64,000 nucleotides of DNA from an uncultured Candidatus Saccharibacteria bacterium (GTDB lineage Bacteria > Patescibacteriota > Minisyncoccia > Phycocordibacterales > GWA1-40-21). Shown in pieces: positions 7,993 through 63,065 of this stretch; within the stretch, counting starts at the first letter, position 1, and each line of letters starts with the position of its first letter. The position numbers were made by a program, and so were the translations under genes. The notes beneath the pieces were generated by a model. The model saw only the letters and a program-made list of their open reading frames with translations, ran no database searches and was not told the DNA's origin. The stretch spans positions 103 to 64,102 of the forward strand of contig CAZSCE010000001.1 in NCBI GenBank assembly GCA_964605355.1, written 5' to 3'.

Positions 7993-8017
7993 AGTTTTGT
8001 TTGATTAAGGAAGCAAG

Positions 8018-8092
8018 AATTGTTTGAATTTTTTATAGCGTCGGAGCCCACCCGTACTCGGGAAGGGTGAAGCTTAAAAAATTTAAATAATT
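8018..8092. repeat. REP/MITE-like structured intergenic element, copy 1 of 3 (core 8037..8073)
   Basis: The 37-nt core AGCGTCGGAGCCCACCCGTACTCGGGAAGGGTGAAGC is shared with copies at 47447..47483 and 60748..60785. It is flanked by the A+T-rich inverted arms AATTGTTTGAATTTTTT and AAAAAATTTAAATAATT. It lies about 50 nt upstream of the frr start. Confidence 0.7.
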
Positions 8093-8118
8093 TTGATTCC
8101 TGATTACTAATAAATTAA

Positions 8119-19023: not shown

Positions 19024-19641
19024 ATGGACACCATAGACAAGCTAACCGAAATATTTAGAAGCTTCCCGGGGATTGGCCCACGCCAAGCCAAACGCTTTGT
19101 GTATTTTTTACTGACCAGAAATAAAAGTTATATAAAAGACTTTGTGAGCCTGGTGGAAGAATTACAGAAAGAGATCCAGATCTGCTCCGAATGTTTTCAA
19201 TATTTTACTAAAAATAAATCGGCCACCCCACTTTGTGAAATCTGTAATAGTAAGAACCGTGATGAAAATGTACTGATGATAGTGGCTCGGGATATTGATT
19301 TGGAAAATATTGAAAAAAGCCATTCCTTTAATGGCAAATATTTTGTGCTGGGTGGCACGGTACCAATTCTAGAAAAGAATCCAGAAAATAGAATTCATTT
19401 AAAAGAACTGCTCTCCGCTATAGAAAACAAAGTAAAAAAGGGTTTGAAGGAAATAATTTTAGGTTTTAGTATTAATCCAGAAAGTGAATATACGGCTGAC
19501 TTTGTTATCCTGTCCCTTTCCCCACTTATTTCAAAATATAATTTAAAAATCTCCCACCTCGGCCGCGGCCTCTCCACCGGTACGGAACTTGAATACTCTG
19601 ACGCTGACACCATCAAAAGCGCGCTAGAAAATAGAAAATAA
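19024..19641 (+). CDS. recR: recombination protein RecR
   Basis: The HhH motif (FPGIGPRQAKRFVYFLL), a C4 zinc finger (CSECFQYF...CEICN) and a Toprim domain are present. Confidence 0.9.
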   Translation: MDTIDKLTEIFRSFPGIGPRQAKRFVYFLLTRNKSYIKDFVSLVEELQKEIQICSECFQYFTKNKSATPLCEICNSKNRDENVLMIVARDIDLENIEKSHSFNGKYFVLGGTVPILEKNPENRIHLKELLSAIENKVKKGLKEIILGFSINPESEYTADFVILSLSPLISKYNLKISHLGRGLSTGTELEYSDADTIKSALENRK

Positions 19642-21668: not shown

Positions 21669-21725
21669 AAGGTGTATATTACACGATTTTTAAATAAATG
21701 CAAGAACAAGGCAATAATTGTTTGA

Positions 21726-21779
21726 TTTTAAAATGTCTGGTTGAGCCGTTCTATGGGCGACCCGAGGACTTTTAAAATT
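21726..21779. repeat. left copy of a roughly 54-bp inverted repeat pair flanking rmuC (partner 22940..22994)
   Basis: TTTTAAAATGTCTGGTTGAGCC...GGCGACCCGAGGACTTTTAAAATT is the reverse complement of 22940..22994 at about 45/54 positions. The divergence is confined to the central 9-10 nt. Confidence 0.8.
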
Positions 21780-21802
21780 AAATAATTATTGCCCTGTTCG
21801 TA

Positions 21803-22864
21803 TTATTCTTCCGTCTCTGGGCGGGAAACCTCCAGTAATTCAATGTCTGATTCTACGCCAGTGATGCGCACCACATCTTTATCAATCTTTTTAAATTCTT
21901 TATTGGACGCATTAAAATGATTCACGGTGGTGGCCAGGGCATTACCCAGCTTGCCTTGATACTCCTCAAAGGTCTTTAAATGCTTTTGCAGACCCTCTAC
22001 ATTCTTCCTTATTTCCATAGCACTTTCCTCTATCTGCATAGCCTTTAGGCCCTGCAAAACAGTCTGCAAATAAGCTAAAAATGAAGTGGGTGACACAATT
22101 ATCACCTTGTATTTATTGGCCGCGCGCTGAATTAAATTATCCGTTTCCTCCGTAATAGCCCCAATTTTATTTACCAGTAAATCATAATAAATAGCCTCGT
22201 GCGGGATGAACATAAAGGCAAAATCCATGGTTCCCTCTTTAGGCCGAATATATTTTGAGGTTTCTTGGATGCGTAATTTCAAATCATTTACAAAAGCTTT
22301 TTCCAGCTTTTCTTTTTCCTGTGGATTCTGCTCCACACTTAATTTATTATAATTCTCCAAAGAAAATTTGGAGTCCACGGGGATTATTTTTTCTTTCACA
22401 AAAACGGCGGCGTCCACTATCTCACCATTAGCAAAAGCATATTGCATTTTATATTGCGTGGGTGCTAAAACATTTTGTAAAAGAGTTTCTAGATAATATT
22501 CACCCAGTATTCCGCGGTGCTTTGGGTTCTTTAAAATATCCTGGAGGGACTGGAGCTGATCCGCAAAACTAACTACTTGTTTATTTGTCTCATCTAGTTT
22601 AGTCAGGCCTTGGGTCACATCCTTTATTAACTTAGCTGATTCACTAAACTGATTCCTAACTGATTCATTCATATGCTTGGCATTCTCACTAATTTTACTA
22701 TCCATAGTGCGGGAGAGCTCATTTATCTGCTGTAAAATAAGGTTTAGGCCGGTATCGTCCTTCTTTTCCTCAGCGGGGGTCTTCTTACTATTTATATTTA
22801 GCCAAATAAGAATAGCTAATGCCAGAAAAACTAATATTAAAACAATAATTATAATTATTTCCAT
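21803..22864 (-). CDS. rmuC: DNA recombination protein RmuC
   Basis: N-terminal TM helix, a long coiled coil, then KHRGILGEYYLETLLQNVL (the RmuC RGxxGExxLE motif) and DFAFMFIPHEAIY. The start is set at the internal Met (MEIIIII..., 22864), which lies just behind a perfect TATAAT. The track start at 22978 lies inside the upstream inverted repeat. Confidence 0.8.
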   Translation of the reverse strand: MEIIIIIVLILVFLALAILIWLNINSKKTPAEEKKDDTGLNLILQQINELSRTMDSKISENAKHMNESVRNQFSESAKLIKDVTQGLTKLDETNKQVVSFADQLQSLQDILKNPKHRGILGEYYLETLLQNVLAPTQYKMQYAFANGEIVDAAVFVKEKIIPVDSKFSLENYNKLSVEQNPQEKEKLEKAFVNDLKLRIQETSKYIRPKEGTMDFAFMFIPHEAIYYDLLVNKIGAITEETDNLIQRAANKYKVIIVSPTSFLAYLQTVLQGLKAMQIEESAMEIRKNVEGLQKHLKTFEEYQGKLGNALATTVNHFNASNKEFKKIDKDVVRITGVESDIELLEVSRPETEE

Positions 22865-22939
22865 ATGTAGAGTATTATACCAATTAAAGGCAAAATGTGA
22901 TAGTATTTTAAGTATATAAGCACGGAAGTAAAGATGTTT

Positions 22940-22994
22940 AATTTTAAAAGTCCTCGGGTCGCCAACAGTAAGGCTCAACCAGACATTTTAAAAT
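22940..22994. repeat. right copy of the inverted repeat pair flanking rmuC
   Basis: See 21726..21779. It lies about 75 nt upstream of the inferred rmuC start and promoter. Confidence 0.8.
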
Positions 22995-23027
22995 CAAACC
23001 TCTCTACTTCCTTAATAATATATTACG

Positions 23028-30477: not shown

Positions 30478-30554
30478 ACTTCATCCCACTTACTTACTAT
30501 TTTATAACACTTCATCCCACTCCACAAGCCAAATATCCACTTAGTTGTGGATAA
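30478..30554 (-). promoter_or_regulatory. mraZ upstream control region: two copies of CACTTCATCCCACT plus the inverted repeat TATCCAC-N6-GTGGATA
   Basis: Read on the mraZ strand the repeats are AGTGGGATGAAGTGG, i.e. GTGGG-N5-GTGG with 10-bp periodicity. This matches the direct-repeat architecture of MraZ operators. TGTGGATAA (30546..30554) equals the DnaA-box consensus. Confidence 0.55.
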
Positions 30555-36007: not shown

Positions 36008-38017
36008 CTAGGATTTTTTACTAATCAATTTATTTAGTTCTATGAGTTCATCACGGAGGATGGCGGCGGTTTCAAAATCTAGTATTTTTACAGCAGCATT
36101 CAGCTGAATTTCTTTTTGCTTAATAAGTTTTTTAGGATTTTTTAGTACTCCCGGCTGATCAATTCGTAATAATTCCTTGACCGCTTTATCATGTGGGGAC
36201 TTCAGATTCTCCATAATATCATTTATCTTTTTAATAATAGTTTTTGGAGTAATACCGTGTCTGGTATTATAAGCCACCTGGATAGCGCGCCTTCTGTTTG
36301 TCTCATCCATAGCCCGCTTTATAGAACCGGTAATATTATCGGCGTACAAAACCACTTTGCCTTTTACATTTCTGGCGGCCCGGCCAATAATTTGAATCAG
36401 GGAGGTATCACTACGCAAGAAACCTTCTTTATCTGCATCTAAAATACCAATAAATTCTACTTCGGGTAAATCCAAACCTTCACGCAAAAGGTTTACTCCC
36501 ACAATACAATCAAACTTCCCTTTTCGAAAGTCTGTCAAAATACCAATCCGGTCAATTGTTTTTATATCACTGTGTAAATATTCTGCTTTCACACCTTTCG
36601 CTTTCAAATATTCACTGAGATCCTCAGCCATTTTTTTGGTCAAAGTAGTGGCTATCACGCGCCCGCCACCTTTAATCACGGTCTCTGTCTCCGCAATAAA
36701 ATCATAAACCTGGCCTTTATACTTGCCCTTTTCAATTATGCCACGGATTTCCACCTCCGGATCAATAAGACCGGTGGGCCTAATGACTTGCTGTACCACC
36801 TGTTTACTTTTTTCTAATTCATAAGTGCTTGGGGTGGCAGAAGTATAAATTACTTGACCAACTCTCTCCACAAATTCTGGGAATTTTAACGGGCGGTTAT
36901 CACTGGCTGATGGTAAACGAAAACCATGATCAATTAAATTTTTCTTACGGGAAGCATCCCCCGCATACATACCATTTAGTTGTGGCACGGTCACATGTGA
37001 CTCATCAATAATAGTTAAAAAATCTTCAGGAAAATAGGCCAGCAAAGAATCCGGCGGTTCACCCGGCATTTTACCAGAAAAGTGCCTAGAATAATTCTCA
37101 ATACCGTTACAATAACCTACCTCTTTAATTAAAGATAAATCATAACTGGTTCGGCGTTTTAGGCGCTCCGCTTCCAAAATTTTCCCCTCTCTAGTTAATT
37201 TCTTTAACTGACCATCAAGCTCGGCTTTGATACTTGAAATGGCGCGCTTTTTCTCATTTTCGTTGGTAATAAAGTGTTTGGCGGGAAATAAAAAGAAAGT
37301 TTTCTCCTCACTCACTATCCGCCTGGTGATGCCATCAATTTTATAAATAGTTTTAATTTCATCCTCTTGAAAGTCAATTCGGTAAATTAATTTTTCATTC
37401 ACCGGCATAATTTCCAGGGCGTTACCCACGGCGCGGAATTCTCCTGGTTTTAAATCCGTATTATTTCTTTCAAAATGAATATTGATAAATTTACGGATCA
37501 TCTCGGCGCGGGAAATTTGCATCCCCACAGAGATTTTTAAATTTACTTTTTCATATTCGGCCGGAGAACCCAAACCATAAATACAAGAAACTGAAGCCAC
37601 AATAATCACATCTTTCCTAGACAAAAGGGCCTGGGTGCTGGCGTGGCGCAGACGGTCAATCTCTTCGTTGATCATGGCTTCCTTTTCAATATAAGTATCC
37701 GTCACAGGAATATACGCCTCAGGCTGATAATAGTCATAATAAGAAACAAAATAATGAACAGCGTTATGCGGAAAAAATTCCTTATATTCTTGAGCTAATT
37801 GTGCCGCCAGGGTTTTATTATGAGCAATCACCAGGGTAGGCCGTTGAACTTGCTGTATCACATTGGCCACCGTAAAAGTTTTCCCGGATCCGGTTACGCC
37901 TAAAAGAGTCTGATCTTTCAAACCTTTTTTCACCCCTTTTACCAGCTTCTCAATAGCCTCTGGCTGGTCTCCCGCGGGCTTATATTCAGCCTTAATTTTA
38001 AATAAATTCTGTTGCAT
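36008..38017 (-). CDS. uvrB: excinuclease ABC subunit B
   Basis: FKIKAEYKPAGDQPEAIEKLVKGVKKGLKDQTLLGVTGSGKTFTVANVI is the UvrB N-terminus. Helicase motifs and the C-terminal UvrB/UvrC interaction domain are present. The start is set at the internal Met (MQQNLFK). Confidence 0.95.
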   Translation of the reverse strand: MQQNLFKIKAEYKPAGDQPEAIEKLVKGVKKGLKDQTLLGVTGSGKTFTVANVIQQVQRPTLVIAHNKTLAAQLAQEYKEFFPHNAVHYFVSYYDYYQPEAYIPVTDTYIEKEAMINEEIDRLRHASTQALLSRKDVIIVASVSCIYGLGSPAEYEKVNLKISVGMQISRAEMIRKFINIHFERNNTDLKPGEFRAVGNALEIMPVNEKLIYRIDFQEDEIKTIYKIDGITRRIVSEEKTFFLFPAKHFITNENEKKRAISSIKAELDGQLKKLTREGKILEAERLKRRTSYDLSLIKEVGYCNGIENYSRHFSGKMPGEPPDSLLAYFPEDFLTIIDESHVTVPQLNGMYAGDASRKKNLIDHGFRLPSASDNRPLKFPEFVERVGQVIYTSATPSTYELEKSKQVVQQVIRPTGLIDPEVEIRGIIEKGKYKGQVYDFIAETETVIKGGGRVIATTLTKKMAEDLSEYLKAKGVKAEYLHSDIKTIDRIGILTDFRKGKFDCIVGVNLLREGLDLPEVEFIGILDADKEGFLRSDTSLIQIIGRAARNVKGKVVLYADNITGSIKRAMDETNRRRAIQVAYNTRHGITPKTIIKKINDIMENLKSPHDKAVKELLRIDQPGVLKNPKKLIKQKEIQLNAAVKILDFETAAILRDELIELNKLISKKS

Positions 38018-38101
38018 TTGATTTGTGATTATGATACATTTTGAGAGGAAAAGCAAGAAAGGTTCGTGGCTAAATAAACAACAACATGTGGGGGTTTTAC
38101 A

Positions 38102-46592: not shown

Positions 46593-47162
46593 TTAGTATT
46601 TACGAATTACCCCTTTGACAATAGCTGCTATTTGAAGTTCGTGTTCTGGGTAAATAGGGGAAAAATCCTTGTTTGCGGGCTCCAGATATATTTTACCTAG
46701 CCTGTTCCGGTAATATTTCATAGTCCAGCCACCATCCACAGAAGCAATAACAATCTCACCATCCCGGGGCTCTCTCTTGGTTTTCTCAGCAATCACCATA
46801 TCACCTTCGTGAATACCAGCATCAATCATGGAGTCACCTTTTACTTTTAATAAATAAGAGGAATCTTTATCCCTAATCAAATAATCATCAATATTTATGG
46901 TATCCAGATCAATTTCCTCTGCGGTGGTGGGAAAGCCGGCCTCTACCAAACCCAGAAGTGGCACCTCGCCAAGCAACTTATTGGGAATCAAATGCCCGCT
47001 ACTATCCTTATCTAGTACACCGTCATCAATCAATTTATGAATTACTTTGGCTACCGCATTTTTAGATTTGAAGCCAAGAAGCTTCATCATTTCCGTATAA
47101 ACCGGCATGCGCTTGTTAGCTTTGTAAAAGGAGATTATTTTGTTTTTATAATTATCCAGCAT
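46593..47162 (-). CDS. lexA: LexA repressor (S24 peptidase)
   Basis: An N-terminal winged HTH, the Ala-Gly cleavage site (VEAGF), VKGDSMIDAGIHEGD (catalytic Ser), and the catalytic Lys in GEIVIASVDGGWTMKYY. Confidence 0.9.
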   Translation of the reverse strand: MLDNYKNKIISFYKANKRMPVYTEMMKLLGFKSKNAVAKVIHKLIDDGVLDKDSSGHLIPNKLLGEVPLLGLVEAGFPTTAEEIDLDTINIDDYLIRDKDSSYLLKVKGDSMIDAGIHEGDMVIAEKTKREPRDGEIVIASVDGGWTMKYYRNRLGKIYLEPANKDFSPIYPEHELQIAAIVKGVIRKY

Positions 47163-47189
47163 TTTATTTATAATAAATCAGTAGCCCTA

Positions 47190-47405
47190 TTATAGCAGAA
47201 ATGTAGCTACTACGTTTACTGTGCGCTGTAACCAGTTAGACTGAAAGCGAGACAGGCGGTGTAGGTCACTTAACCGGTTCAACAAAAAGCGGTGACGGAG
47301 GGCTTCACGCCTATAAGATACACCTTCAACAATTTTCACATCAATGATGTCATTAATCTTGGCTAACTCTGACTTAATCCTCTTTTCTAAAATAAATTTG
47401 CTCAT
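47190..47405 (-). CDS. hypothetical small protein co-transcribed upstream of lexA
   Basis: 71-aa ORF between the SOS promoter/REP element and lexA. No motif. Confidence 0.3.
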   Translation of the reverse strand: MSKFILEKRIKSELAKINDIIDVKIVEGVSYRREALRHRFLLNRLSDLHRLSRFQSNWLQRTVNVVATFLL

Positions 47406-47418
47406 GTTATTATTGCTT

Positions 47419-47510
47419 AAAGAGAAAATAATGTTTACAATTTTCAGCGCGTAGGACCCACCCGTACTCGGGAAGGGTGAAGCGTGAAAATTTAAATATT
47501 GTTTTCTCTT
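47419..47510. repeat. REP/MITE-like structured element, copy 2 of 3 (core 47447..47483), in the lexA-operon 5' UTR
   Basis: AGCGCGTAGGACCCACCCGTACTCGGGAAGGGTGAAGC with arms ACAATTTTC / GAAAATTTAAATATTG and the outer complementary pair AAGAGAAAA / TTTTCTCTT. Confidence 0.7.
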
Positions 47511-47527
47511 ATATTATTATGTAGTTA

Positions 47528-47556
47528 AGTATAGGTGAACGCTCGTTCACCGTCAA
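47528..47556 (-). promoter_or_regulatory. SOS promoter: TTGACG - 17-nt spacer - TATACT with a LexA (Cheo-type) operator filling the spacer
   Basis: The minus strand reads TTGACGgtgaacgagcgttcaccTATACT. The 18-bp perfect palindrome GGTGAACGCTCGTTCACC (47534..47551) contains GAAC-N4-GTTC, the Gram-positive-type LexA box. Confidence 0.7.
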
Positions 47557-47646
47557 CCCTAAAACTGTGGATAACTTATTTCCGATACATTATCCCCCAC
47601 TTGTAAATAGTTGTGCCAAGCCAGCCTTTAATATATAGTTATATTT

Positions 47647-48396
47647 ATGCTACCAATAATTCTTTCATCCCTGGTTATAATGCTGGCTTCCTTGATTGGG
47701 GTGATTTCTGTTTGGAAAAATCTGGGGCAAATTATTGAGAGAAATTTACACTTTTTAGTCAGTTTCTCGGCTGGGGTCTTTCTTTATATTTCCTATGAAT
47801 TATGTCTGGAAACTATTCACGAGGCTCCCACAATTCAGAACGGTTTCTTATGGATTCTGGTTGGTATTTTTGGAGTCTGGTTAATTTTTAAATTACTCCC
47901 CACTTTTCACCACCATCATGACAATGAAACAGAGATTCACGTTCACTCTCAGATTGATGCCCGAAAAATATTGATTAGTGATGGTTTACACAATATTGGT
48001 GATGGTATTTTACTAGTCACATCTTTTACTGTCAGCTTGACCCTGGGTATGGTGGCCACCTTAAGTATTTTTGTTCATGAAATAATCCAAGAAATCTCAG
48101 AATTTTTTGTTCTTCGCGGGGCTGGTTATTCTGTGAGGAAGGCTCTTATTACCAGCTTTGCTATTTCCAGCACCATTTTGATTGGCTCTGTTGGTGGTTT
48201 ATTTTTATTAGACAATTTTAAAGTATTTGAAATCCCCCTCCTGGGCCTAGCCGCTGGTTCATTTTTAATGGTGGTTATCCAAGATCTCATCCCCCATTCT
48301 ATAAAAGTTTCCACCAGCCGCGCCCACATTATAAAACACCTTGCCTGGTTTTTAGCCGGCCTATTAATTATGATAGGGCTGAGTACTATTAGTTAG
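47647..48396 (+). CDS. zupT: ZIP-family metal transporter (ZupT-like)
   Basis: TM protein with a His-rich loop (HHHHDNETEIHVH) and the ZIP signatures LHNIGDGIL and VHEIIQEISEF. Confidence 0.75.
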   Translation: MLPIILSSLVIMLASLIGVISVWKNLGQIIERNLHFLVSFSAGVFLYISYELCLETIHEAPTIQNGFLWILVGIFGVWLIFKLLPTFHHHHDNETEIHVHSQIDARKILISDGLHNIGDGILLVTSFTVSLTLGMVATLSIFVHEIIQEISEFFVLRGAGYSVRKALITSFAISSTILIGSVGGLFLLDNFKVFEIPLLGLAAGSFLMVVIQDLIPHSIKVSTSRAHIIKHLAWFLAGLLIMIGLSTIS

Positions 48397-48436
48397 TTAA
48401 TAAAATTCACAGAATAATATGATTTTGGAGACGTAA

Positions 48437-48642
48437 AATTAAACGTAACCAGAATACAGTGCTAGAGGAGGCTTGGGAGCGCGACGGCGCGAGTTGAGAT
48501 TTGGGGAGGGACCCAAATGAAAGACCTTGAATGTTTTGTATTCAAAATGTGAAAGGTGTACTGTCCCTGTAAGGGACGAGGAATTTTTTAGCAAAAAAAT
48601 ATCCGTGCTCCGGTTAGTACTGTATTCTGGTTACGTTTAATT
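48437..48642. mobile_element. MITE-like element: 24-bp perfect terminal inverted repeats around a roughly 158-bp G+C-richer core
   Basis: AATTAAACGTAACCAGAATACAGT (48437..48460) is the exact reverse complement of 48619..48642. The core contains internal hairpins (GTCCC-tgtaa-GGGAC). The element touches the stop codon of the adjacent gene. Confidence 0.55.
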
Positions 48643-49299
48643 ACAGTAAAGGTACGACTCTGGGATTTCTTTTAGAATTTGGGCGGGCATTTCCGTTAAA
48701 GGTAAATCTTCATTTTGAAGTTTAATAATTATTTCCTTTTTAGATTCCCCAAAAGCAAAAGTGTAAGCCACAGTAATATTCTTTATTGTTTTTAAAGTGA
48801 GAGTAATGCGCCTAAACTTTCCACCATCATAACCACTAGCGGTAGCTTGATCTTTGACCCCCACGGTACCAGGCAAAACCCCGGCTGTATGCCCATCAGT
48901 GCCCAGACCAAACTGCCCTACCACCACCTCGGCCCAAGCTGTCAGATCCCGATATTTCTTGCCAAAATAGATTACTGTTTCCTTTAATTCCAAATCATTT
49001 AAAACCGGCACTGCCTGCACAGCGTCAAAATCAAAACCTGCCTCCCCCAGCTGCTGCCAATTTGAATCAGCGTGGCCCACGGGACCATGGCGCTCATCAG
49101 TGAGAGTCACCGCTAAAATATTTTTCAATTTACCGCCAAAATCTTTTTTTAATTTTTCTAAAACCTCCACTTCAATATTTATATTTGACCCACCAGAAAG
49201 TAACCACAACACATTTTTATTTCCCTTTAAATATTTCCCTATCCCCTCTACCAATATTTTCACCCCCTCCACCTCCCCTTTTATTTTTATAAATTCCAT
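48637..49299 (-). CDS. 6-phosphogluconolactonase-like (NagB/Pgl sugar-phosphate isomerase fold)
   Basis: GLGTDGHTAGVLPG matches the 6-phosphogluconolactonase G(M/L)GxDGHxASlFP box. 220 aa. Confidence 0.65.
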   Translation of the reverse strand: MEFIKIKGEVEGVKILVEGIGKYLKGNKNVLWLLSGGSNINIEVEVLEKLKKDFGGKLKNILAVTLTDERHGPVGHADSNWQQLGEAGFDFDAVQAVPVLNDLELKETVIYFGKKYRDLTAWAEVVVGQFGLGTDGHTAGVLPGTVGVKDQATASGYDGGKFRRITLTLKTIKNITVAYTFAFGESKKEIIIKLQNEDLPLTEMPAQILKEIPESYLYCN

Positions 49300-49315
49300 C
49301 TCACTATCTTAGCAC

Positions 49316-49360
49316 AAAAAAAGAGCGCTATCCCCACACCGGTGTGTGAAAATAGCGCTC
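49316..49360 (-). terminator. intrinsic terminator GAGCGCTAT-loop-ATAGCGCTC plus a 7-U tail (minus strand), the 3' boundary of the high-G+C island
   Basis: 9-bp stem with an internal CACACCGGTGTG palindrome and an A7 run on the plus strand. Confidence 0.7.
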
Positions 49361-49389
49361 CGTGTTGTCATAAAGAACTCCTCGTTAAC

Positions 49390-50571
49390 TCACAGAAGAG
49401 AAAGAATCAGCTCGCCCATTTCTGATGTATGCAAGAGGCTAGAACCTTTGCTGTAAACCAGTGTCAGGTTCGGATCACCACCAACATACATATCCCCCGT
49501 CCGATAGCCCTGCTTCAGAGCCTCACGAACTGCTTCCTCAATGGCTTTTGCGCCCTTCACCGCACCCAAATGCCGGAGCATCATGGCCGCCGTGAGAATG
49601 CGCCCCAGCGGATTAGTTTTGTTCTGCCCAGCCAATGTCGGAGCCGTCCCCGCACCGCTTTCAAACATCGCTGCGCCCGTGTCCGGATTGATGGCCGAAC
49701 TGCACATCATCCCCATACTGCCAAGTGCCGCCGCTGCTCCATCCGAGAGGATGTCCCCGTGCTCATTTCCACAAGCAATGACGCCGTGGAGTTTGGCCGG
49801 AGTGAACAACAGTGCATTCGCCGAGTCTACCAACTGGTGCTGGAGTGGCACGTCCGGGAATTCCGTCCTCCCGATTCTCGTGACAATCTTGCGCCAAAAG
49901 TCATACCGCGCCATCACGTTTGCCTTGTCGATGGAGATGAGAGGCAAGCCCACATCTCTCGCGTAAGTAAACGCCGCCCGGATATACTTCTCAATTGTTT
50001 CCCGGCGATAGTAGGCGATGTCAGAGACGAGCCTCTCGTCACCCGTCACACACTTCTTCAACCTGACGCCGATCCGTTCACAACCATCGCTTGGTATAAG
50101 TGACATCAGATCCTCGTTCCCGAAGTAGCTGTCCTCCAGGAGGAAGCGAATCCAAACCTGGGTGATGCCCTCGGCCGGAATTGTTTCCGGTCTGACGTTG
50201 GCCAAATGCGCCAGCTCCTTGTAGTAGATCATGGGGCGGAAGTTGAGCAACAACCCCATGTCTTTACGCAGTTTCAGCAAACACCTTGACTCCGGCTTCA
50301 TCTCCGGCTTCTCCTTGCCGATGGTGTCGTCCCACTTGGGATCACCCACGCCACCGAAGAAGATTGTGCCGATTTCAACCGCTCTTTTCAGAGACGCTTC
50401 CGGCCGTGTGTCGCCAAACTTTTCGTAGGCGCTCCACCCCATCGGAGTCTTTTCAAAAGCGATCTGGATGTTGTCCTTCTCAGCGGCCTTGATGGCAACA
50501 GCACAAGCCACCGCCATCATCTCCGGACCAGAGCCATCTCCAGTCACCAGAGCAACTGTTTTTTTTATCAT
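49390..50571 (-). CDS. 3-isopropylmalate/isocitrate/homoisocitrate dehydrogenase family enzyme
   Basis: LVTGDGSGPEMM (the GDGIGPEV box) and NEHGDILSDGAAAALGSMGMMCSSAI (the IMDH/IDH signature N-x-x-GD-I-x-SD). High G+C composition. Confidence 0.8.
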   Translation of the reverse strand: MIKKTVALVTGDGSGPEMMAVACAVAIKAAEKDNIQIAFEKTPMGWSAYEKFGDTRPEASLKRAVEIGTIFFGGVGDPKWDDTIGKEKPEMKPESRCLLKLRKDMGLLLNFRPMIYYKELAHLANVRPETIPAEGITQVWIRFLLEDSYFGNEDLMSLIPSDGCERIGVRLKKCVTGDERLVSDIAYYRRETIEKYIRAAFTYARDVGLPLISIDKANVMARYDFWRKIVTRIGRTEFPDVPLQHQLVDSANALLFTPAKLHGVIACGNEHGDILSDGAAAALGSMGMMCSSAINPDTGAAMFESGAGTAPTLAGQNKTNPLGRILTAAMMLRHLGAVKGAKAIEEAVREALKQGYRTGDMYVGGDPNLTLVYSKGSSLLHTSEMGELILSLL

Positions 50572-50645
50572 TTCGCGTTTCCTTTCTTGAGCTGTAACCC
50601 GTGGGCTGATTTTTCATGTCAACCCACGGGTTCATCTTGTTTCGC

Positions 50646-52637
50646 TTACTTCAGCAGTCCTGCTCCCTGCAGTTCCGCCGCCATCTTCACCATTACGCCG
50701 ACGCTTCCGCCGTTACGAATGAGGTCCTTCTGGTATACTGAATGATTGAAAGAAACCCCCTTCAAGCCAACACAGTTGCCAGAGCAACTAGTACTCGGGT
50801 CCATCTCCCAACCTATTGTGCCTTTCTCCCAATCAACACTAATCACTTCAGGCTTCTCGGCGAAGATAGAAGCGATTGTCTCTTTTGGAAGCGTAATGCA
50901 CAACAGTCCGTTGGCAAACATGTTGTTCTCAAAGATGCGAGCAAAGCTCGGTGCAATGACGCACCGAATACCCGCACCCTCGAGTGCCCAAGGCGCATGT
51001 TCACGAGATGAACCGCAACCAAAGTTCTCACCCGCTACCAGTATCTGTGACCCAAAGAGCTTGGGCCAGTCCGCCGACGAAATCGGCGCATCCTCGAGAC
51101 AGTGTTGGCCAAAAGCCTTCTTGTCTGTCTCGGTCAAATACTTGGCCGGAATGATCTGATCAGTATCTACGTTGGCCACCGGCAGGTAAAACACCTTACC
51201 GGAAAAATCCTTCGTCTCCCCCACTCCGAAGAGCTCGAGAAGCTGGCCGTAGTCCGGCCGTTGTGAAGGAACTTCTTTCCAACCCGTGATGCTGGTCAAT
51301 TTCGGAACCGACATCAAACTCACTTCGCGCGCGACCAATCGACAAGTATCTTCAGTTGCCTCTGATACCACTCCGTTGATAGCAGTTTTCGCCGCCGTCG
51401 CCGGTGATGCCAGATGCACCATACCATCCTTGCCCATGCGTCCCGGGAAATTGCGATTCGTCGTCGAAACGCAAACTTCTCCTGGAGCAATCACCCCACA
51501 ACTCATTCCCAGGCAGGCACCGCAAGTGGGACCGCTCACGAAACACCCCGCGTTAGCGAAGATTCCAAACAGCCCTTCCTCAAGTGCCATCTCCCAGATA
51601 TGCTGAGTGGCTGGAACTACAATGCAACGAATATTGTCTGCCACCGGGCGCCCCATCAAACGAAAGATTGTTGCGGCAATCCGCAAATCTTCCAACCGTC
51701 CGTTCGTGCAAGAGCCGATGTAGACCTGGTCAACTTTCTTGCCGGCCAAGTCACTCACCTTCTTCACACAACCTGGTGAATACTCGTCAGTGATGACAGG
51801 AACCATGTCCGAGGCATCAATCTCGATCACCTGATCGTAGACCGCATCCGGATCACTATTCCAGTAGTCGCCCATAAGATAATTCCCAACCTCGAGATTC
51901 TCATGAACTAGGCGCCGGTATCCCGACCCAAGATAATCCATGGTGGTTTGATCCACCATCATCATCCCGGACGTTGCACCTGCTTCCACCGCCATGTTGG
52001 TGATGGTCATCCGCGCTTCCATACTCATCTCATCAATGACTGGGCCACCAAATTCCAACACCGCGTTGGTGGCGCCCTTCACACCAATCTTGCTGATCAG
52101 CGTGAGGATGAGATCTTTGGCGTAAACATTCGCTGGCAATGCGCCGGTGAAGTTCACCCGAATGACTTTCTGAGGTGGACAGATCCAGAGACCGGTTATG
52201 ATGCCGTTCTCCACTTCTGTCGTACCGACACCCGCCGTCAAAGCACAAAAAGCGCCGTGCGTGCAGGTGTGGCTGTCACCCATGATTCCGATCTGGCCCG
52301 GTTTGATCCAGCCCTTCTCAGGAATGACGGCGTGACAAACGCCGTTGCGACCGACGTCCAAAAACTCGATCCCGTGTTCCCGGCTCCAGTTGCGGACAAT
52401 CTGACCTTGAAGGGCCGAAGCCGTATCCTTGGCCGGATTGACGTGATCAATCATGGTCTTGACCTTGTTCGGGTCAAAAACCACATCGCACCCGCGAATC
52501 TTGGCGTCCAGGATAGCGTTTGGTGTCGTAATCTCATGACCCCAAACCCAATCCAGCTGAAGAACCATCCGGCCATCCGGCAAGGTCTTCACACAATGTG
52601 TATCCACGATTTTCTGAAACGCTGTCTTTCCGTTCAT
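50646..52637 (-). CDS. fused aconitase-family dehydratase (LeuC-like large plus LeuD-like small subunit)
   Basis: GVCHAVIPEKG, IGSCTNGRLEDL and the C-terminal GENFGCGSSREHAPWAL. 663 aa, matching the sum of the two subunits. High G+C composition. Confidence 0.8.
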   Translation of the reverse strand: MNGKTAFQKIVDTHCVKTLPDGRMVLQLDWVWGHEITTPNAILDAKIRGCDVVFDPNKVKTMIDHVNPAKDTASALQGQIVRNWSREHGIEFLDVGRNGVCHAVIPEKGWIKPGQIGIMGDSHTCTHGAFCALTAGVGTTEVENGIITGLWICPPQKVIRVNFTGALPANVYAKDLILTLISKIGVKGATNAVLEFGGPVIDEMSMEARMTITNMAVEAGATSGMMMVDQTTMDYLGSGYRRLVHENLEVGNYLMGDYWNSDPDAVYDQVIEIDASDMVPVITDEYSPGCVKKVSDLAGKKVDQVYIGSCTNGRLEDLRIAATIFRLMGRPVADNIRCIVVPATQHIWEMALEEGLFGIFANAGCFVSGPTCGACLGMSCGVIAPGEVCVSTTNRNFPGRMGKDGMVHLASPATAAKTAINGVVSEATEDTCRLVAREVSLMSVPKLTSITGWKEVPSQRPDYGQLLELFGVGETKDFSGKVFYLPVANVDTDQIIPAKYLTETDKKAFGQHCLEDAPISSADWPKLFGSQILVAGENFGCGSSREHAPWALEGAGIRCVIAPSFARIFENNMFANGLLCITLPKETIASIFAEKPEVISVDWEKGTIGWEMDPSTSCSGNCVGLKGVSFNHSVYQKDLIRNGGSVGVMVKMAAELQGAGLLK

Positions 52638-58446: not shown

Positions 58447-58727
58447 TCATACTCACCTACACGGATCCTTGTTGTGACTCACAACATTTTCCTTTCCCTT
58501 TGGGGGTTAAGGACTCTAATCTAGGATTTTGCTCCTCACTAGTGCTCGGGACTAGCTACATAGTGATTTGCGACATCTACGGCGTTTACCCCGCAGACCT
58601 AGATTGGATCACCTCCTTTCTTGTGTTATTGTCCCGCCCGCGAAAATTGTGAACTGTTCTGCTGTACAGTGTATTCCTATTTTTTAAAAATGAAAAGGGT
58701 AAATTAAAATAACCTGTGGATAAAGGT

Positions 58728-58886: not shown

Positions 58887-59882
58887 TCAATCTTTTGGCA
58901 GATAGGTGGAAATTATGCCCTTTACCTCTTGATATGACTCTGTGGCCATCAGTTTTACGCGTAATTCCTTGGCCCCGTCAAAACCGTTAACATAAGCCTT
59001 ATAATGCTTCTTTAGCACGGAGAAATTCTTCTCCTTACCTAATAATTTTTCAAATAATTTAGTATGTTCTAGCAAAGCTTTTAATTTTTCCTTGGTAGTA
59101 ATCACTTTTTTCTTTTTATTAAAAAACCACGGGTTACCAAAAGCTCCCCGCCCCACCATTATCCCGTCACAGCCGGTTTCCCGCGCCCGCGCTTCACCCT
59201 CAGCAATACTTTTTATATCACCGTTTCCAATCACCAGTATTTTTTTTCCACTCGCCCGCACCAGCTCTACCACTTTTTTTACTTGGCTCCAATCAGCGGG
59301 CGGGTCAGACATTTCTTTCATGGTCCGGGCATGAATAGTGAGTGCAGAAATATCTTCCTTTATTATTTCACTAATCCAGGACTCAAGTTCCGTTTTTTTA
59401 CTAAAGCCAATTCTGGTTTTAACAGAAATTGGCATATTTTTATTTCCCTTCTTGGCCAGTTTTGCCCCGGCAATAGCGGCCCGGATTATCTCCCGTGCTA
59501 GGTCTGGATTTTTTATCAAAGCGGAACCGGCGCCTTGTTTGACCACGCTTTTATCCGGGCAACCCATATTTATATCCAGTCCATCAAAGCCCAGTTCCGC
59601 CACCAAGGTACTGGCCCGCTTTATATTTTCCGGCTTAGCGCCAAATATCTGTGCCACTATTAGCCGTTCCTTATTTGAGAATTTAAAATGATGCAAGAGT
59701 TTCTTTTTTCCCACGGAGCACAGTCCATCTGCCGACACAAATTCCGTCCACAACACATCTGGTTTACCATATTTAGCAAACATCCCGCGGAAAGCCACAT
59801 CCGTCACATCCGCCATGGGTGCCAAGCAAAAAAACGGCCGCCCCTTTATTTTATTCCAAAAATTAGCTTTCATAATTGGCAC
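58887..59882 (-). CDS. tRNA-dihydrouridine synthase
   Basis: FFCLAPMADVTDVAFRGMFAKYGKPDVLWTEFVSADGL is the Dus N-terminus. A TIM-barrel FMN-binding core is present, with catalytic Cys in NMGCP. Confidence 0.9.
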   Translation of the reverse strand: MPIMKANFWNKIKGRPFFCLAPMADVTDVAFRGMFAKYGKPDVLWTEFVSADGLCSVGKKKLLHHFKFSNKERLIVAQIFGAKPENIKRASTLVAELGFDGLDINMGCPDKSVVKQGAGSALIKNPDLAREIIRAAIAGAKLAKKGNKNMPISVKTRIGFSKKTELESWISEIIKEDISALTIHARTMKEMSDPPADWSQVKKVVELVRASGKKILVIGNGDIKSIAEGEARARETGCDGIMVGRGAFGNPWFFNKKKKVITTKEKLKALLEHTKLFEKLLGKEKNFSVLKKHYKAYVNGFDGAKELRVKLMATESYQEVKGIISTYLPKD

Positions 59883-60711: not shown

Positions 60712-60720
60712 ATTTCTTTA

Positions 60721-60812
60721 GAGCTCTGGTATTGTTCTAATTTTTTGTCGCGTAGGACCCACCCGTACTCGGGAAGGGTGAAGCGCAAATAATTTGAATA
60801 ATACCAGAGCTC
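60721..60812. repeat. REP/MITE-like structured element, copy 3 of 3 (core 60748..60785) between serS and the ftsQ-like gene
   Basis: GTCGCGTAGGACCCACCCGTACTCGGGAAGGGTGAAGC with arms CTAATTTTTT / AAATAATTTGAATAAT and the outer 13-bp complementary pair GAGCTCTGGTATT / AATACCAGAGCTC. Confidence 0.75.
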
Positions 60813-60821
60813 TTAATAATA

Positions 60822-62147: not shown

Positions 62148-63065
62148 ATGCCATGTTACTATTGGCCCAGAATGAAAATATTACACGTAATGGATCAAGA
62201 CTTCCCTATTCGTGAACTAAAGAAAAAGGAATTTCCGCCTCAGTTATTACAAATTCCCCAAACCCCAGAGAAACTCTATATTAGAGGTGAACTCCCCGGG
62301 CCAGATACCAAATTACTTTGCGTGGTAGGTAGTAGACGTTATACAAACTATGGTAAGGAAGCTTGTGAAAAACTAATTGCCGGCCTCCGCGGTTATGATG
62401 TGGCTATTGTCTCCGGCCTAGCTATTGGTATTGATGGTATTGCGCATGAGGCCGCCATGAATACGGGATTAAGAACCATTACTGTGCCTGGCTCCGGCCT
62501 GGGCGTCAGCGCCATTCACCTAATTGCTCATGTGGGGCTAGCCAAAAGAATATTGGACTCTGGTGGCTGTATGTTATCTGAATACGAGGCTGATTTTAGA
62601 TCAACCCTTTGGAGTTTTCCGCAGAGAAATAGACTTATGGCGGGCTTATCTTGTGCGGTCATGGTTATTGAGGCGGAAATAAAATCCGGGACATTGATAA
62701 CTTCCAGAATGGCCACGGATTATAATAAAGATGTGCTCACCGTACCGGGAAATATTTTTTCTAAAACCTCTGAAGGCCCGCATATGCTAATCCGCCTTGG
62801 TGCCACCCCCATAACCAAACCAGAAGAACTGATAGAGGCGCTGGGTTTTAAAAATAAAAATGAAAAGCCTAGAAATTTGGAATTAGAGTATAATGAATGC
62901 AGTCCGGAAGAGAAAAAAGTAATTGCCTTTTTGCGCGCGCCCACAGAGAAAGATGAGCTCCTCCGCTCCCTCAATATGCCTGTAGGCCAAGCCAACGCCG
63001 TCCTCTCCGTCATGGAGCTGAAAGGCCTCATCAAAGAAACCCTCGGTGAAATCCATTTGACATAA
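62148..63065 (+). CDS. dprA: DNA processing protein DprA (Smf)
   Basis: PPQLLQIPQTPEKLYIRGELPG...LCVVGSRRYTNYG...VSGLAIGIDGIAHEAA is the Rossmann-like DprA domain. The true start may be the downstream Met at 62172. Confidence 0.85.
   Translation: MPCYYWPRMKILHVMDQDFPIRELKKKEFPPQLLQIPQTPEKLYIRGELPGPDTKLLCVVGSRRYTNYGKEACEKLIAGLRGYDVAIVSGLAIGIDGIAHEAAMNTGLRTITVPGSGLGVSAIHLIAHVGLAKRILDSGGCMLSEYEADFRSTLWSFPQRNRLMAGLSCAVMVIEAEIKSGTLITSRMATDYNKDVLTVPGNIFSKTSEGPHMLIRLGATPITKPEELIEALGFKNKNEKPRNLELEYNECSPEEKKVIAFLRAPTEKDELLRSLNMPVGQANAVLSVMELKGLIKETLGEIHLT

Follow-up and report, generated by a model that had tools for sequence, protein, structure and literature searches.

The 91-nt hairpin element that fills the leader of the orf71-lexA operon (47420..47510 of the window, by which we mean the whole 64,000-nt stretch of DNA analysed) is regarded here, at a probability of roughly 0.55, as a copy of a dispersed non-coding palindromic repeat family of Paceibacteria-type CPR genomes, REP/REPIN-like in kind and a passenger in the lexA leader. 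The strand whose fold is selected is the plus strand, which is antisense to orf71 and lexA. Such a REP/REPIN-like element may act at the level of the host.

A family of palindromic elements with GC-rich tips

The lexA-leader element, copy 2 of what we call type A, consists of inverted arms (47420-47443 and 47487-47510) around a GC-rich core. This core, the plus-strand apical module at 47447..47483, is nearly invariant over 19 copies from several CPR genomes and is composed of an unpaired GTAGG tag, the stem half ACCC-A-CCCG, a TACT loop, the stem half CGGG-AA-GGGT and a GAA tail, the stem being a bulged one of 8 bp and the module being closed by CGC/GCG. Covariance model R1 matches copy 2 at 47421-47514 with 91.5 bits, and the folding energy is -42.6 kcal/mol on the plus strand versus -32.0 kcal/mol on the minus strand, with z = -8.3 and -5.5, respectively, relative to chance.

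The 27-mer CCCACCCGTACTCGGGAAGGGTGAAGC occurs exactly at 8047, 47457 and 60758, each time on the plus strand, where 0 matches are expected from 100 shuffles. The identity with an element at 8018..8092 that the earlier note had proposed is borne out by the 27-mer common to 8047 and 47457, and the dispersed REP/MITE-like repeat postulated there gains support from the further copies of this core; the third copy, at 60758, had been missed. Copy 1 (8009..8105, plus strand, R1 83.6 bits) carries the tag variant GTCGGAG and lies between a holB-like gene and frr, antisense to both, and copy 3 (60720..60816, plus strand, R1 105.6 bits), which folds with -51.8 kcal/mol (z -9.4), fills the spacer between serS and ftsQ, again antisense to both genes. 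Two further elements belong to a sister type, B, one at about 21700..21805 on the plus strand, between rplU and rmuC and antisense to them, the other at about 22915..23020 on the minus strand, in the divergent rmuC/yqeY spacer; in the window the type B core GTCTGG...CCGAGGAC is flanked by the arms TTGATTTTAAAAT on its 5' and TTTTAAAATTAAA on its 3' side, and its apical insert is variable. In sum, the 64-kb window holds at least five elements of about 100 nt each, approximately one per 13 kb. The element at 22915-23020 extends over the start predicted for the RmuC ORF (21803-22978, minus strand), a start that is for this reason probably mis-called.

Collection scans with the core retrieved about 19 unique type A copies from at least five CPR MAGs and metagenomes, among the MAGs Paceibacteria JBIIYK01, CAZAJY01 and CAYVWL01 (both labelled Saccharibacteria) and JBAXIZ01. 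The 27-nt core is exact in 15 of the 19 copies, the tag reads GTCG instead of GTAG in six of them, and the tip is nearly invariant between genomes that share about 82% identity in LexA. Types beyond A, found with covariance model R1 and pattern scans, have their arms in common with type A: A2 and A3 show altered tips, and types B, C and D carry GTCTGG...GGAC cores on similar arms, the GTC that corresponds to the tag being predicted as paired in these three. Across the family, the elements measure 83-120 nt and are built as a long AT-rich stem, with semi-conserved inner arms TTCAAATTTTTCG ... CGAAnAATTTGAA, that is capped by the GC-rich module. The outer stem, comprising the outermost 8-16 bp, is wholly different between copies, yet still paired, and the arms are more similar within than between genomes.

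Read along the element strand, 22 of 26 elements have a 5' neighbouring gene that is directed away from them, and the copies are found in tandem antisense (13), tandem sense (3-4) and divergent (7) contexts, the antisense bias in tandem contexts being modest (approximately p = 0.05). The elements nearly fill the spacers in which they reside, often at distances of 3-17 nt to a start and -17 to 30 nt to a stop codon, and T-rich tails follow 5 of 30 copies on the element strand and 6 of 30 on the other. One type C element abuts a match to the Rfam L10_leader (L018 873-1080) and one type A element abuts a tRNA gene (L006 2740-2911); the elements seem to be tolerated directly beside other structured RNAs.

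Searched in gathering mode with Rfam 15, the window and 19 loci yielded solely tRNAs and one L10 leader above threshold and no match to an element, and in E-value mode both element regions gave sub-threshold matches only, to generic miRNA-hairpin models, one sRNA and one lncRNA. A viral origin was rejected, as no type A core was found in the viral contigs of IMG/VR and searches of phage and plasmid collections gave no sequence similar to the elements; two matches to type B arms in viral data are chance AT-rich stretches without the hairpin, and Streptomyces matches to a 21-mer (L008, L012) are chance matches in GC-rich DNA, devoid of arms. By eye, the defining features of the SRP domain IV, the sarcin-ricin loop, the K-turn, SD/anti-SD mimicry, attC and CRISPR repeats do not fit, nor do those of box C/D as in TIGR-Tas stem-loop arrays (PMC12045711). 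The KOPS motif GGGNAGGG is contained in the tip, yet its strand does not agree with the skew. In the dus gene, a stretch of 13 nt identical to the type A tip (AGGGTGAAGCGCG on the minus strand, 59188-59200) is probably due to chance.

The lexA operon and its operator

The product of lexA (46593..47162, minus strand) contains a Peptidase_S24 domain (PF00717, 1.3e-24), scores above the equivalog cut-off of TIGR00498 (118.6 versus 110.95 bits, NCBIfam) and possesses the Ala-Gly cleavage site, the GDSM serine motif and the lysine; homologues with 70-99% identity number in the hundreds, many of them named LexA. The first gene of the operon, orf71 (47190..47405, minus strand), encodes a conserved helical protein of 71 aa. 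We compared the orthologous lexA locus in nine other lineages (L020, L025, L027, L029, L030 and L032-L035), and in all ten loci, the window included, a 71-aa ORF is situated immediately 5' of lexA, with an identity of 73-89% across eight of them. Homologues of orf71 fall into 81 clusters, almost always with a length of 71 aa; a source is named for a few of them, and the label is then Paceibacterota or Patescibacteria. From a comparative point of view orf71 is a real gene. No match to it was found in Pfam, NCBIfam, PDB sequences or by fold search, and its structural model (pLDDT 84) predicts a helical hairpin followed by a C-terminal helix, the latter with low confidence. A role of orf71 as an SOS effector, for example as an inhibitor of division, is pure speculation.

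Transcription of the operon is predicted to start from a sigma-70-type promoter, TTGACG-17-TATACT (47528..47556, minus strand; TTGACG at 47556-47551 and TATACT at 47533-47528), which scores 10/12. Its spacer is a perfect 8+8 palindrome, GGTGAACG-AG-CGTTCACC (47534-47551), and is filled by the LexA box GGTGAACGAGCGTTCACC with its GAAC-N4-GTTC core (47534..47551, no strand assigned). The promoter with this box is almost invariant in all ten orthologous loci. A single GAAC-N4-GTTC in the 64-kb window, where 0.48 are expected, is not significant by itself; in 280 kb of non-redundant related DNA the motif occurs ten times, every time in a lexA promoter, which argues that the lexA operator is real and, by position, autoregulatory, with binding of LexA being inferred. 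A palindrome that overlaps the promoter of an SOS gene and is kept in relatives would be in line with an operator of the Gram-positive type. The Gram-positive-type (Cheo) LexA box is CGAAC-N4-GTTCG. As in Gram-positive-type lexA autoregulation, the GAAC-N4-GTTC palindrome overlaps the lexA promoter here, in contrast to which a conserved 71-aa gene precedes lexA and, in one subclade, a hairpin repeat fills the leader. The SOS network of the Patescibacteria has reportedly been the subject of a comparative study by Sanchez-Osuna, Barbe and Erill in 2017, to which PMC8565304 refers. Within the window, the sole exact LexA box is the one at lexA; uvrA (282-2885), uvrB (36008-38056), dprA (62148-63065) and recR (19024-19641) have no exact GAAC-N4-GTTC box.

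Nine nt upstream of the -35 hexamer, TTATCCACA matches the DnaA-box consensus (47566..47574, minus strand). A box of this type is found 0-9 nt upstream of -35 in the orthologous loci, with one base differing in L025, and is thus not a chance match. Perfect consensus boxes TTATCCACA number three on the minus strand of the window (30546-30554, 58715-58723 and 47566-47574) versus 0.82 expected, one of the three being located about 140 nt upstream of mraZ and one after a terminator-like hairpin upstream of a dnaX-like gene. The order on the minus strand that had been read from the window alone, DnaA-box-like site, promoter TTGACG-[LexA box]-TATACT, element, 71-aa ORF and lexA, is exactly as described, the coordinates given for every feature of the 47419-47510 region are accurate, and both promoter and DnaA-box-like site, found where the earlier note had placed them, are kept in the orthologous loci, the promoter in all ten.

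Two further observations concern the surroundings of the operon. A motif upstream of the lexA promoter, TATTTACAAGTGGGG (47592-47606, minus strand), is kept in most orthologous loci, L032 and L034 showing clear divergence, and may be part of the divergently oriented gene for a ZIP transporter. The region 48001-52000, which holds genes of the isocitrate/isopropylmalate dehydrogenase and the aconitase families, has a GC content of 0.49, compared with 0.36-0.41 elsewhere in the window, for which foreign origin or strong compositional constraint could be responsible.

Insertion, constraint and strand preference of the hairpin

The comparison of the lexA leader, taken from TATACT to the orf71 ATG, among relatives for presence or absence of the element, which the earlier note had put forward, gives a mixed picture. 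The type A element is found in the window, L020 and L040, its tip variant A2, with a different core, in L029, and the sister type B in L025/26 and L030/31; the leaders of L027/28, L033, L034 and L035 are short (35-55 nt) and free of hairpins, and that of L032 holds a small unrelated hairpin. A similar situation is encountered between serS and ftsQ, which overlap in L037 without an element; in the window they are separated by a 110-nt spacer that an antisense type A element fills, and in L036 by a 117-nt spacer filled by a type B element in sense orientation. Presence/absence polymorphism at orthologous sites, as is typical of mobile repeats, is thereby seen both in the lexA leader and at serS-ftsQ. 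Pre-existing palindromic targets or terminator loops were rejected, given that the empty sites in L033, L027 and L037 hold no palindrome, so that the whole hairpin is the inserted unit. This comparison of loci has shown the hairpin to be a derived insertion into an originally short orf71-lexA leader.

Once acquired, the hairpin has been conserved. Between the window and its sister strain L020, the third codon positions of lexA and orf71 differ at 42 of 262 sites (16%) and other intergenic positions at 12 of 138, whereas none of the 91 positions of the hairpin differs, either from L020 or from L040, which is of the same lineage as L020 (P ~1e-7). In the same manner, the type B elements of L025 and L030 are identical over their central 75 nt, with third positions only 49% identical. 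By these comparisons, the hairpin has been shown to be under purifying selection and to evolve far slower than synonymous sites.

Pairing, too, is maintained. In the 19-copy alignment 94% of the cells are paired and 19 of 36 pairs change on both sides, with none of 500 shuffles reaching any of the measures and slid registers being 33-50% paired. The tip helix shows one compensatory change, CCCG/CGGG to CCTG/CAGG, in L029, and in the outer stem the substitutions between the orthologous type B copies of L025 and L030 are compensatory.

The two strands are not equivalent. The plus strand, which contains the core, folds better in 18 of 19 copies, and the inner 31 pairs comprise 23 G.U versus 4 A.C on this strand (p = 3e-4). 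In all filled lexA leaders the better-folding strand is antisense to lexA, with -38.3 kcal/mol antisense versus -21.7 kcal/mol sense in the leader of L025. A mutation bias does not explain the excess of G.U, as C exceeds G throughout the plus strand of the window, which predicts the opposite asymmetry, and the sense-oriented copies L036, L033 and L015 keep the wobbles on the element strand. Since the asymmetry follows the element, the selected conformer is the single-stranded element strand; it is by this pattern of wobbles that selection is seen to keep the single-stranded form of the element strand, which at lexA is antisense to the operon.

Kinship with known repeats and competing explanations

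REPs are GC-rich stem-loops whose tag, GTAG or CGTC and at times a degenerate GTMG, is unpaired; they have a stem of 6-13 bp with frequent G-T pairs, a short loop and sometimes a 3-nt tail, and had been catalogued in more than 80 species of eight phyla before CPR genomes became available (Di Nocera, De Gregorio and Rocco, 2013, PMC3733652). The type A tip bears such a tag, GTAGG or GTCGG, unpaired beside a GC-rich stem-loop, and the elements are likewise extragenic and multicopy, with a short loop, a 3-nt unpaired tail, G-T pairs in the stems and several families coexisting in one genome. In contrast to REPs, which measure 20-40 nt, reach hundreds of copies and are situated downstream of genes, the elements are 83-120 nt long, place one tagged stem-loop atop a 30-40-bp AT-rich hairpin, occur about once per 13 kb (five in 64 kb) and are mostly located upstream of start codons, antisense, and, unlike the hosts of the census, the host here is a CPR bacterium. 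REPINs are composed of two inverted REPs with a variable spacer and are mobilised by RAYTs (Bertels and Rainey, 2011, PMC3116915). With them the elements share the non-autonomous hairpin without coding capacity, the long persistence and the within-genome families, but where the stems of REPINs are conserved and the loop is variable, it is here the tip and the inner arms that are conserved and the outer stem that varies, and each element has a single non-palindromic tip on AT-rich arms unrelated to it.

Transposition of the IS200/IS605 family, to which RAYTs are related, is strand-specific and is not known to create a target-site duplication. Chemistry of this type fits the strand asymmetry of the elements and the missing duplication, the longest direct match between the flanks averaging 4.07 over 30 elements compared with 3.87 in shuffles. 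Among the 59 ORFs of the window, which are housekeeping genes or without family match, no Y1_Tnp or other transposase, reverse transcriptase, HUH enzyme or RAYT/IS200-like gene was found, and 334 kb of DNA screened crudely for HUH+Tyr motifs gave none either. An IS3-family transposase pair (rve and HTH_Tnp_1) in L032 (17348-18420) and a serine recombinase in L037 (15155-16477) are not near a hairpin element. The conserved terminal inverted repeats and the target-site duplication of DDE-derived MITEs are both lacking, and the elements are therefore not classical MITEs.

ERIC/IRU, Correia/NEMIS and RUP/BOX are palindromes, imperfect and about 100-150 nt long, within intergenic DNA that is transcribed, which form RNA hairpins in mRNAs with orientation-dependent effects and whose mobilising enzyme is unknown or acts in trans. 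They resemble the elements, according to these descriptions, as intergenic palindromes of about 100 nt; they are conserved over their whole length, and Correia has terminal inverted repeats with TA duplications. We know of no ERIC/IRU, Correia/NEMIS or RUP/BOX family with a swappable GC-rich tip on shared AT-rich arms.

Several points weigh against a REP/REPIN-like nature: purifying selection at the level of the locus is not expected for purely selfish DNA, six of 19 type A copies have GTCG as their tag and, in types B, C and D, the corresponding GTC is paired in the predicted fold, the architecture is neither that of a 20-40-nt unit nor of an inverted doublet, the screens just described returned no RAYT or transposase and, should the active form be RNA, the antisense copies would need antisense transcription, for which no promoter was found. 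The hairpins might also be host-maintained, strand-specific structured elements of CPR bacteria, RNA or ssDNA, of a class undescribed so far and not selfish DNA, an explanation we entertain only tentatively. Shared AT-rich arms would then carry interchangeable GC-rich recognition tips beside start codons, mostly on the antisense strand, serving cis-antisense RNAs as a portable scaffold or 3' module, or a dedicated protein as a docking hairpin, and the elements would tune neighbouring genes, the SOS repressor operon included. Another proposal, that they are small structured RNA genes transcribed from the plus (element) strand, we consider rather doubtful. The RNA would be antisense to the leader of the lexA operon; in tandem contexts it would oppose intergenic mRNA, or its hairpin would be the 3' part of antisense RNAs that extend across the neighbouring start codon. 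The tip, invariant across genomes with LexA only about 82% identical, would in that case bind a protein or RNA partner, and the strong covariation, the excess of G.U over A.C on the element strand, an asymmetry that tracks the element and not gene direction, and the purifying selection at the locus all agree with it; against it, no conserved promoter lies upstream, U-tails are inconsistent (5 of 30 on the element strand), the spacers are very tight (often 3-17 nt to start and -17 to 30 nt to stop codons), Rfam holds no match, and presence/absence and swaps of type at one junction resemble insertions rather than conserved genes.

That the elements are selfish, functionless MITE-like insertions, whose conservation reflects youth or homogenisation, would account for a multicopy, non-coding, palindromic nature, for the presence/absence polymorphism at orthologous sites and for arms that are more alike inside a genome than between genomes, but is unlikely in the face of 0/91 differences against 16% at third positions in sister strains and of 75 identical type B nucleotides (L025, L030) despite saturated synonymous sites. 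Moreover, copy-specific outer stems are not homogenisable from other copies, target-site duplication and conserved termini are missing and no related autonomous IS was seen. Position between promoter and first start codon, a stable sense fold (-32 kcal/mol, z -5.5) and the constraint on the hairpin at the lexA locus could suggest a lexA-specific cis-regulatory leader RNA in the sense transcript, such as an attenuator, a thermometer or a riboswitch-like element; we deem this very improbable, as five of ten orthologous leaders lack the element and others hold other types, the same element is found at holB-frr and serS-ftsQ, two unrelated junctions, folding is weaker on the sense strand, where the A.C mismatches lie, and the stem, without U-tract or terminator, ends 14 nt before the AUG. 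Equally little credence is given to an intrinsic, possibly bidirectional, terminator or an insulator. Outer stems in L002, L009, L011 and L018 do look terminator-like (AAAAAGCC...GGCTTTT), but a T-rich tail is present in merely 5 of 30 and 6 of 30 copies by strand and not at all in the lexA-leader copy, and a terminator between promoter and lexA would silence a conserved, intact operon.

What the REP/REPIN-like reading entails for the lexA operon can be outlined from the layout of the leader. Terminator-like sites number zero in 47150-47700, and the hairpin, which has no U-tail, is not a terminator; its stem ends 14 nt ahead of the orf71 AUG, which is left uncovered. Inside and just upstream of the element only weak promoter matches are found, at the rate expected by chance. 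As no better promoter was found downstream of the hairpin in the orf71-lexA leader, the reverse complement of the element should, by position, be transcribed in an SOS-controlled 5' UTR. The earlier note had described the hairpin as part of an SOS-regulated 5' UTR, which stands insofar as the hairpin lies between the LexA-box promoter and orf71-lexA and is expected in the transcript; that it is a feature of SOS control is not supported, the element being absent or replaced in most orthologous leaders. LexA would repress the orf71-lexA promoter, and in a transcript that starts near 47521 after SOS induction, the reverse complement of the element would occupy about +12 to +102, with the AUG of orf71 following at about +117. 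The element would form a stem-loop of -32 kcal/mol in this transcript and, without a U tail and with the AUG free, RNA polymerase should read through, any effect being one on mRNA stability, processing or translation and not a switch. The element itself would work as a single-stranded plus-strand hairpin, the invariant tip of which is read by a trans-acting factor, most likely as an ssDNA hairpin of the REP/REPIN type that a RAYT-like or another protein recognises, alternatively as an RNA of the antisense strand, and the lexA operon would be a tolerated, possibly co-opted, insertion site.

In such a scheme, the LexA-box promoter, the 71-aa gene and lexA constitute the conserved SOS core, and the leader hairpin is a lineage-specific add-on. 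Genomes of CPR/Patescibacteria are about 1 Mb in size and very compact, and repeated non-coding DNA is hence unexpected in them. If the elements are REPIN-like, the known range of REP-type repeats and their mobilising enzyme would come to include the CPR, and the architecture would be a new one; should they be functional RNAs instead, they would represent a new RNA class in organisms for which almost no regulatory RNAs are known.
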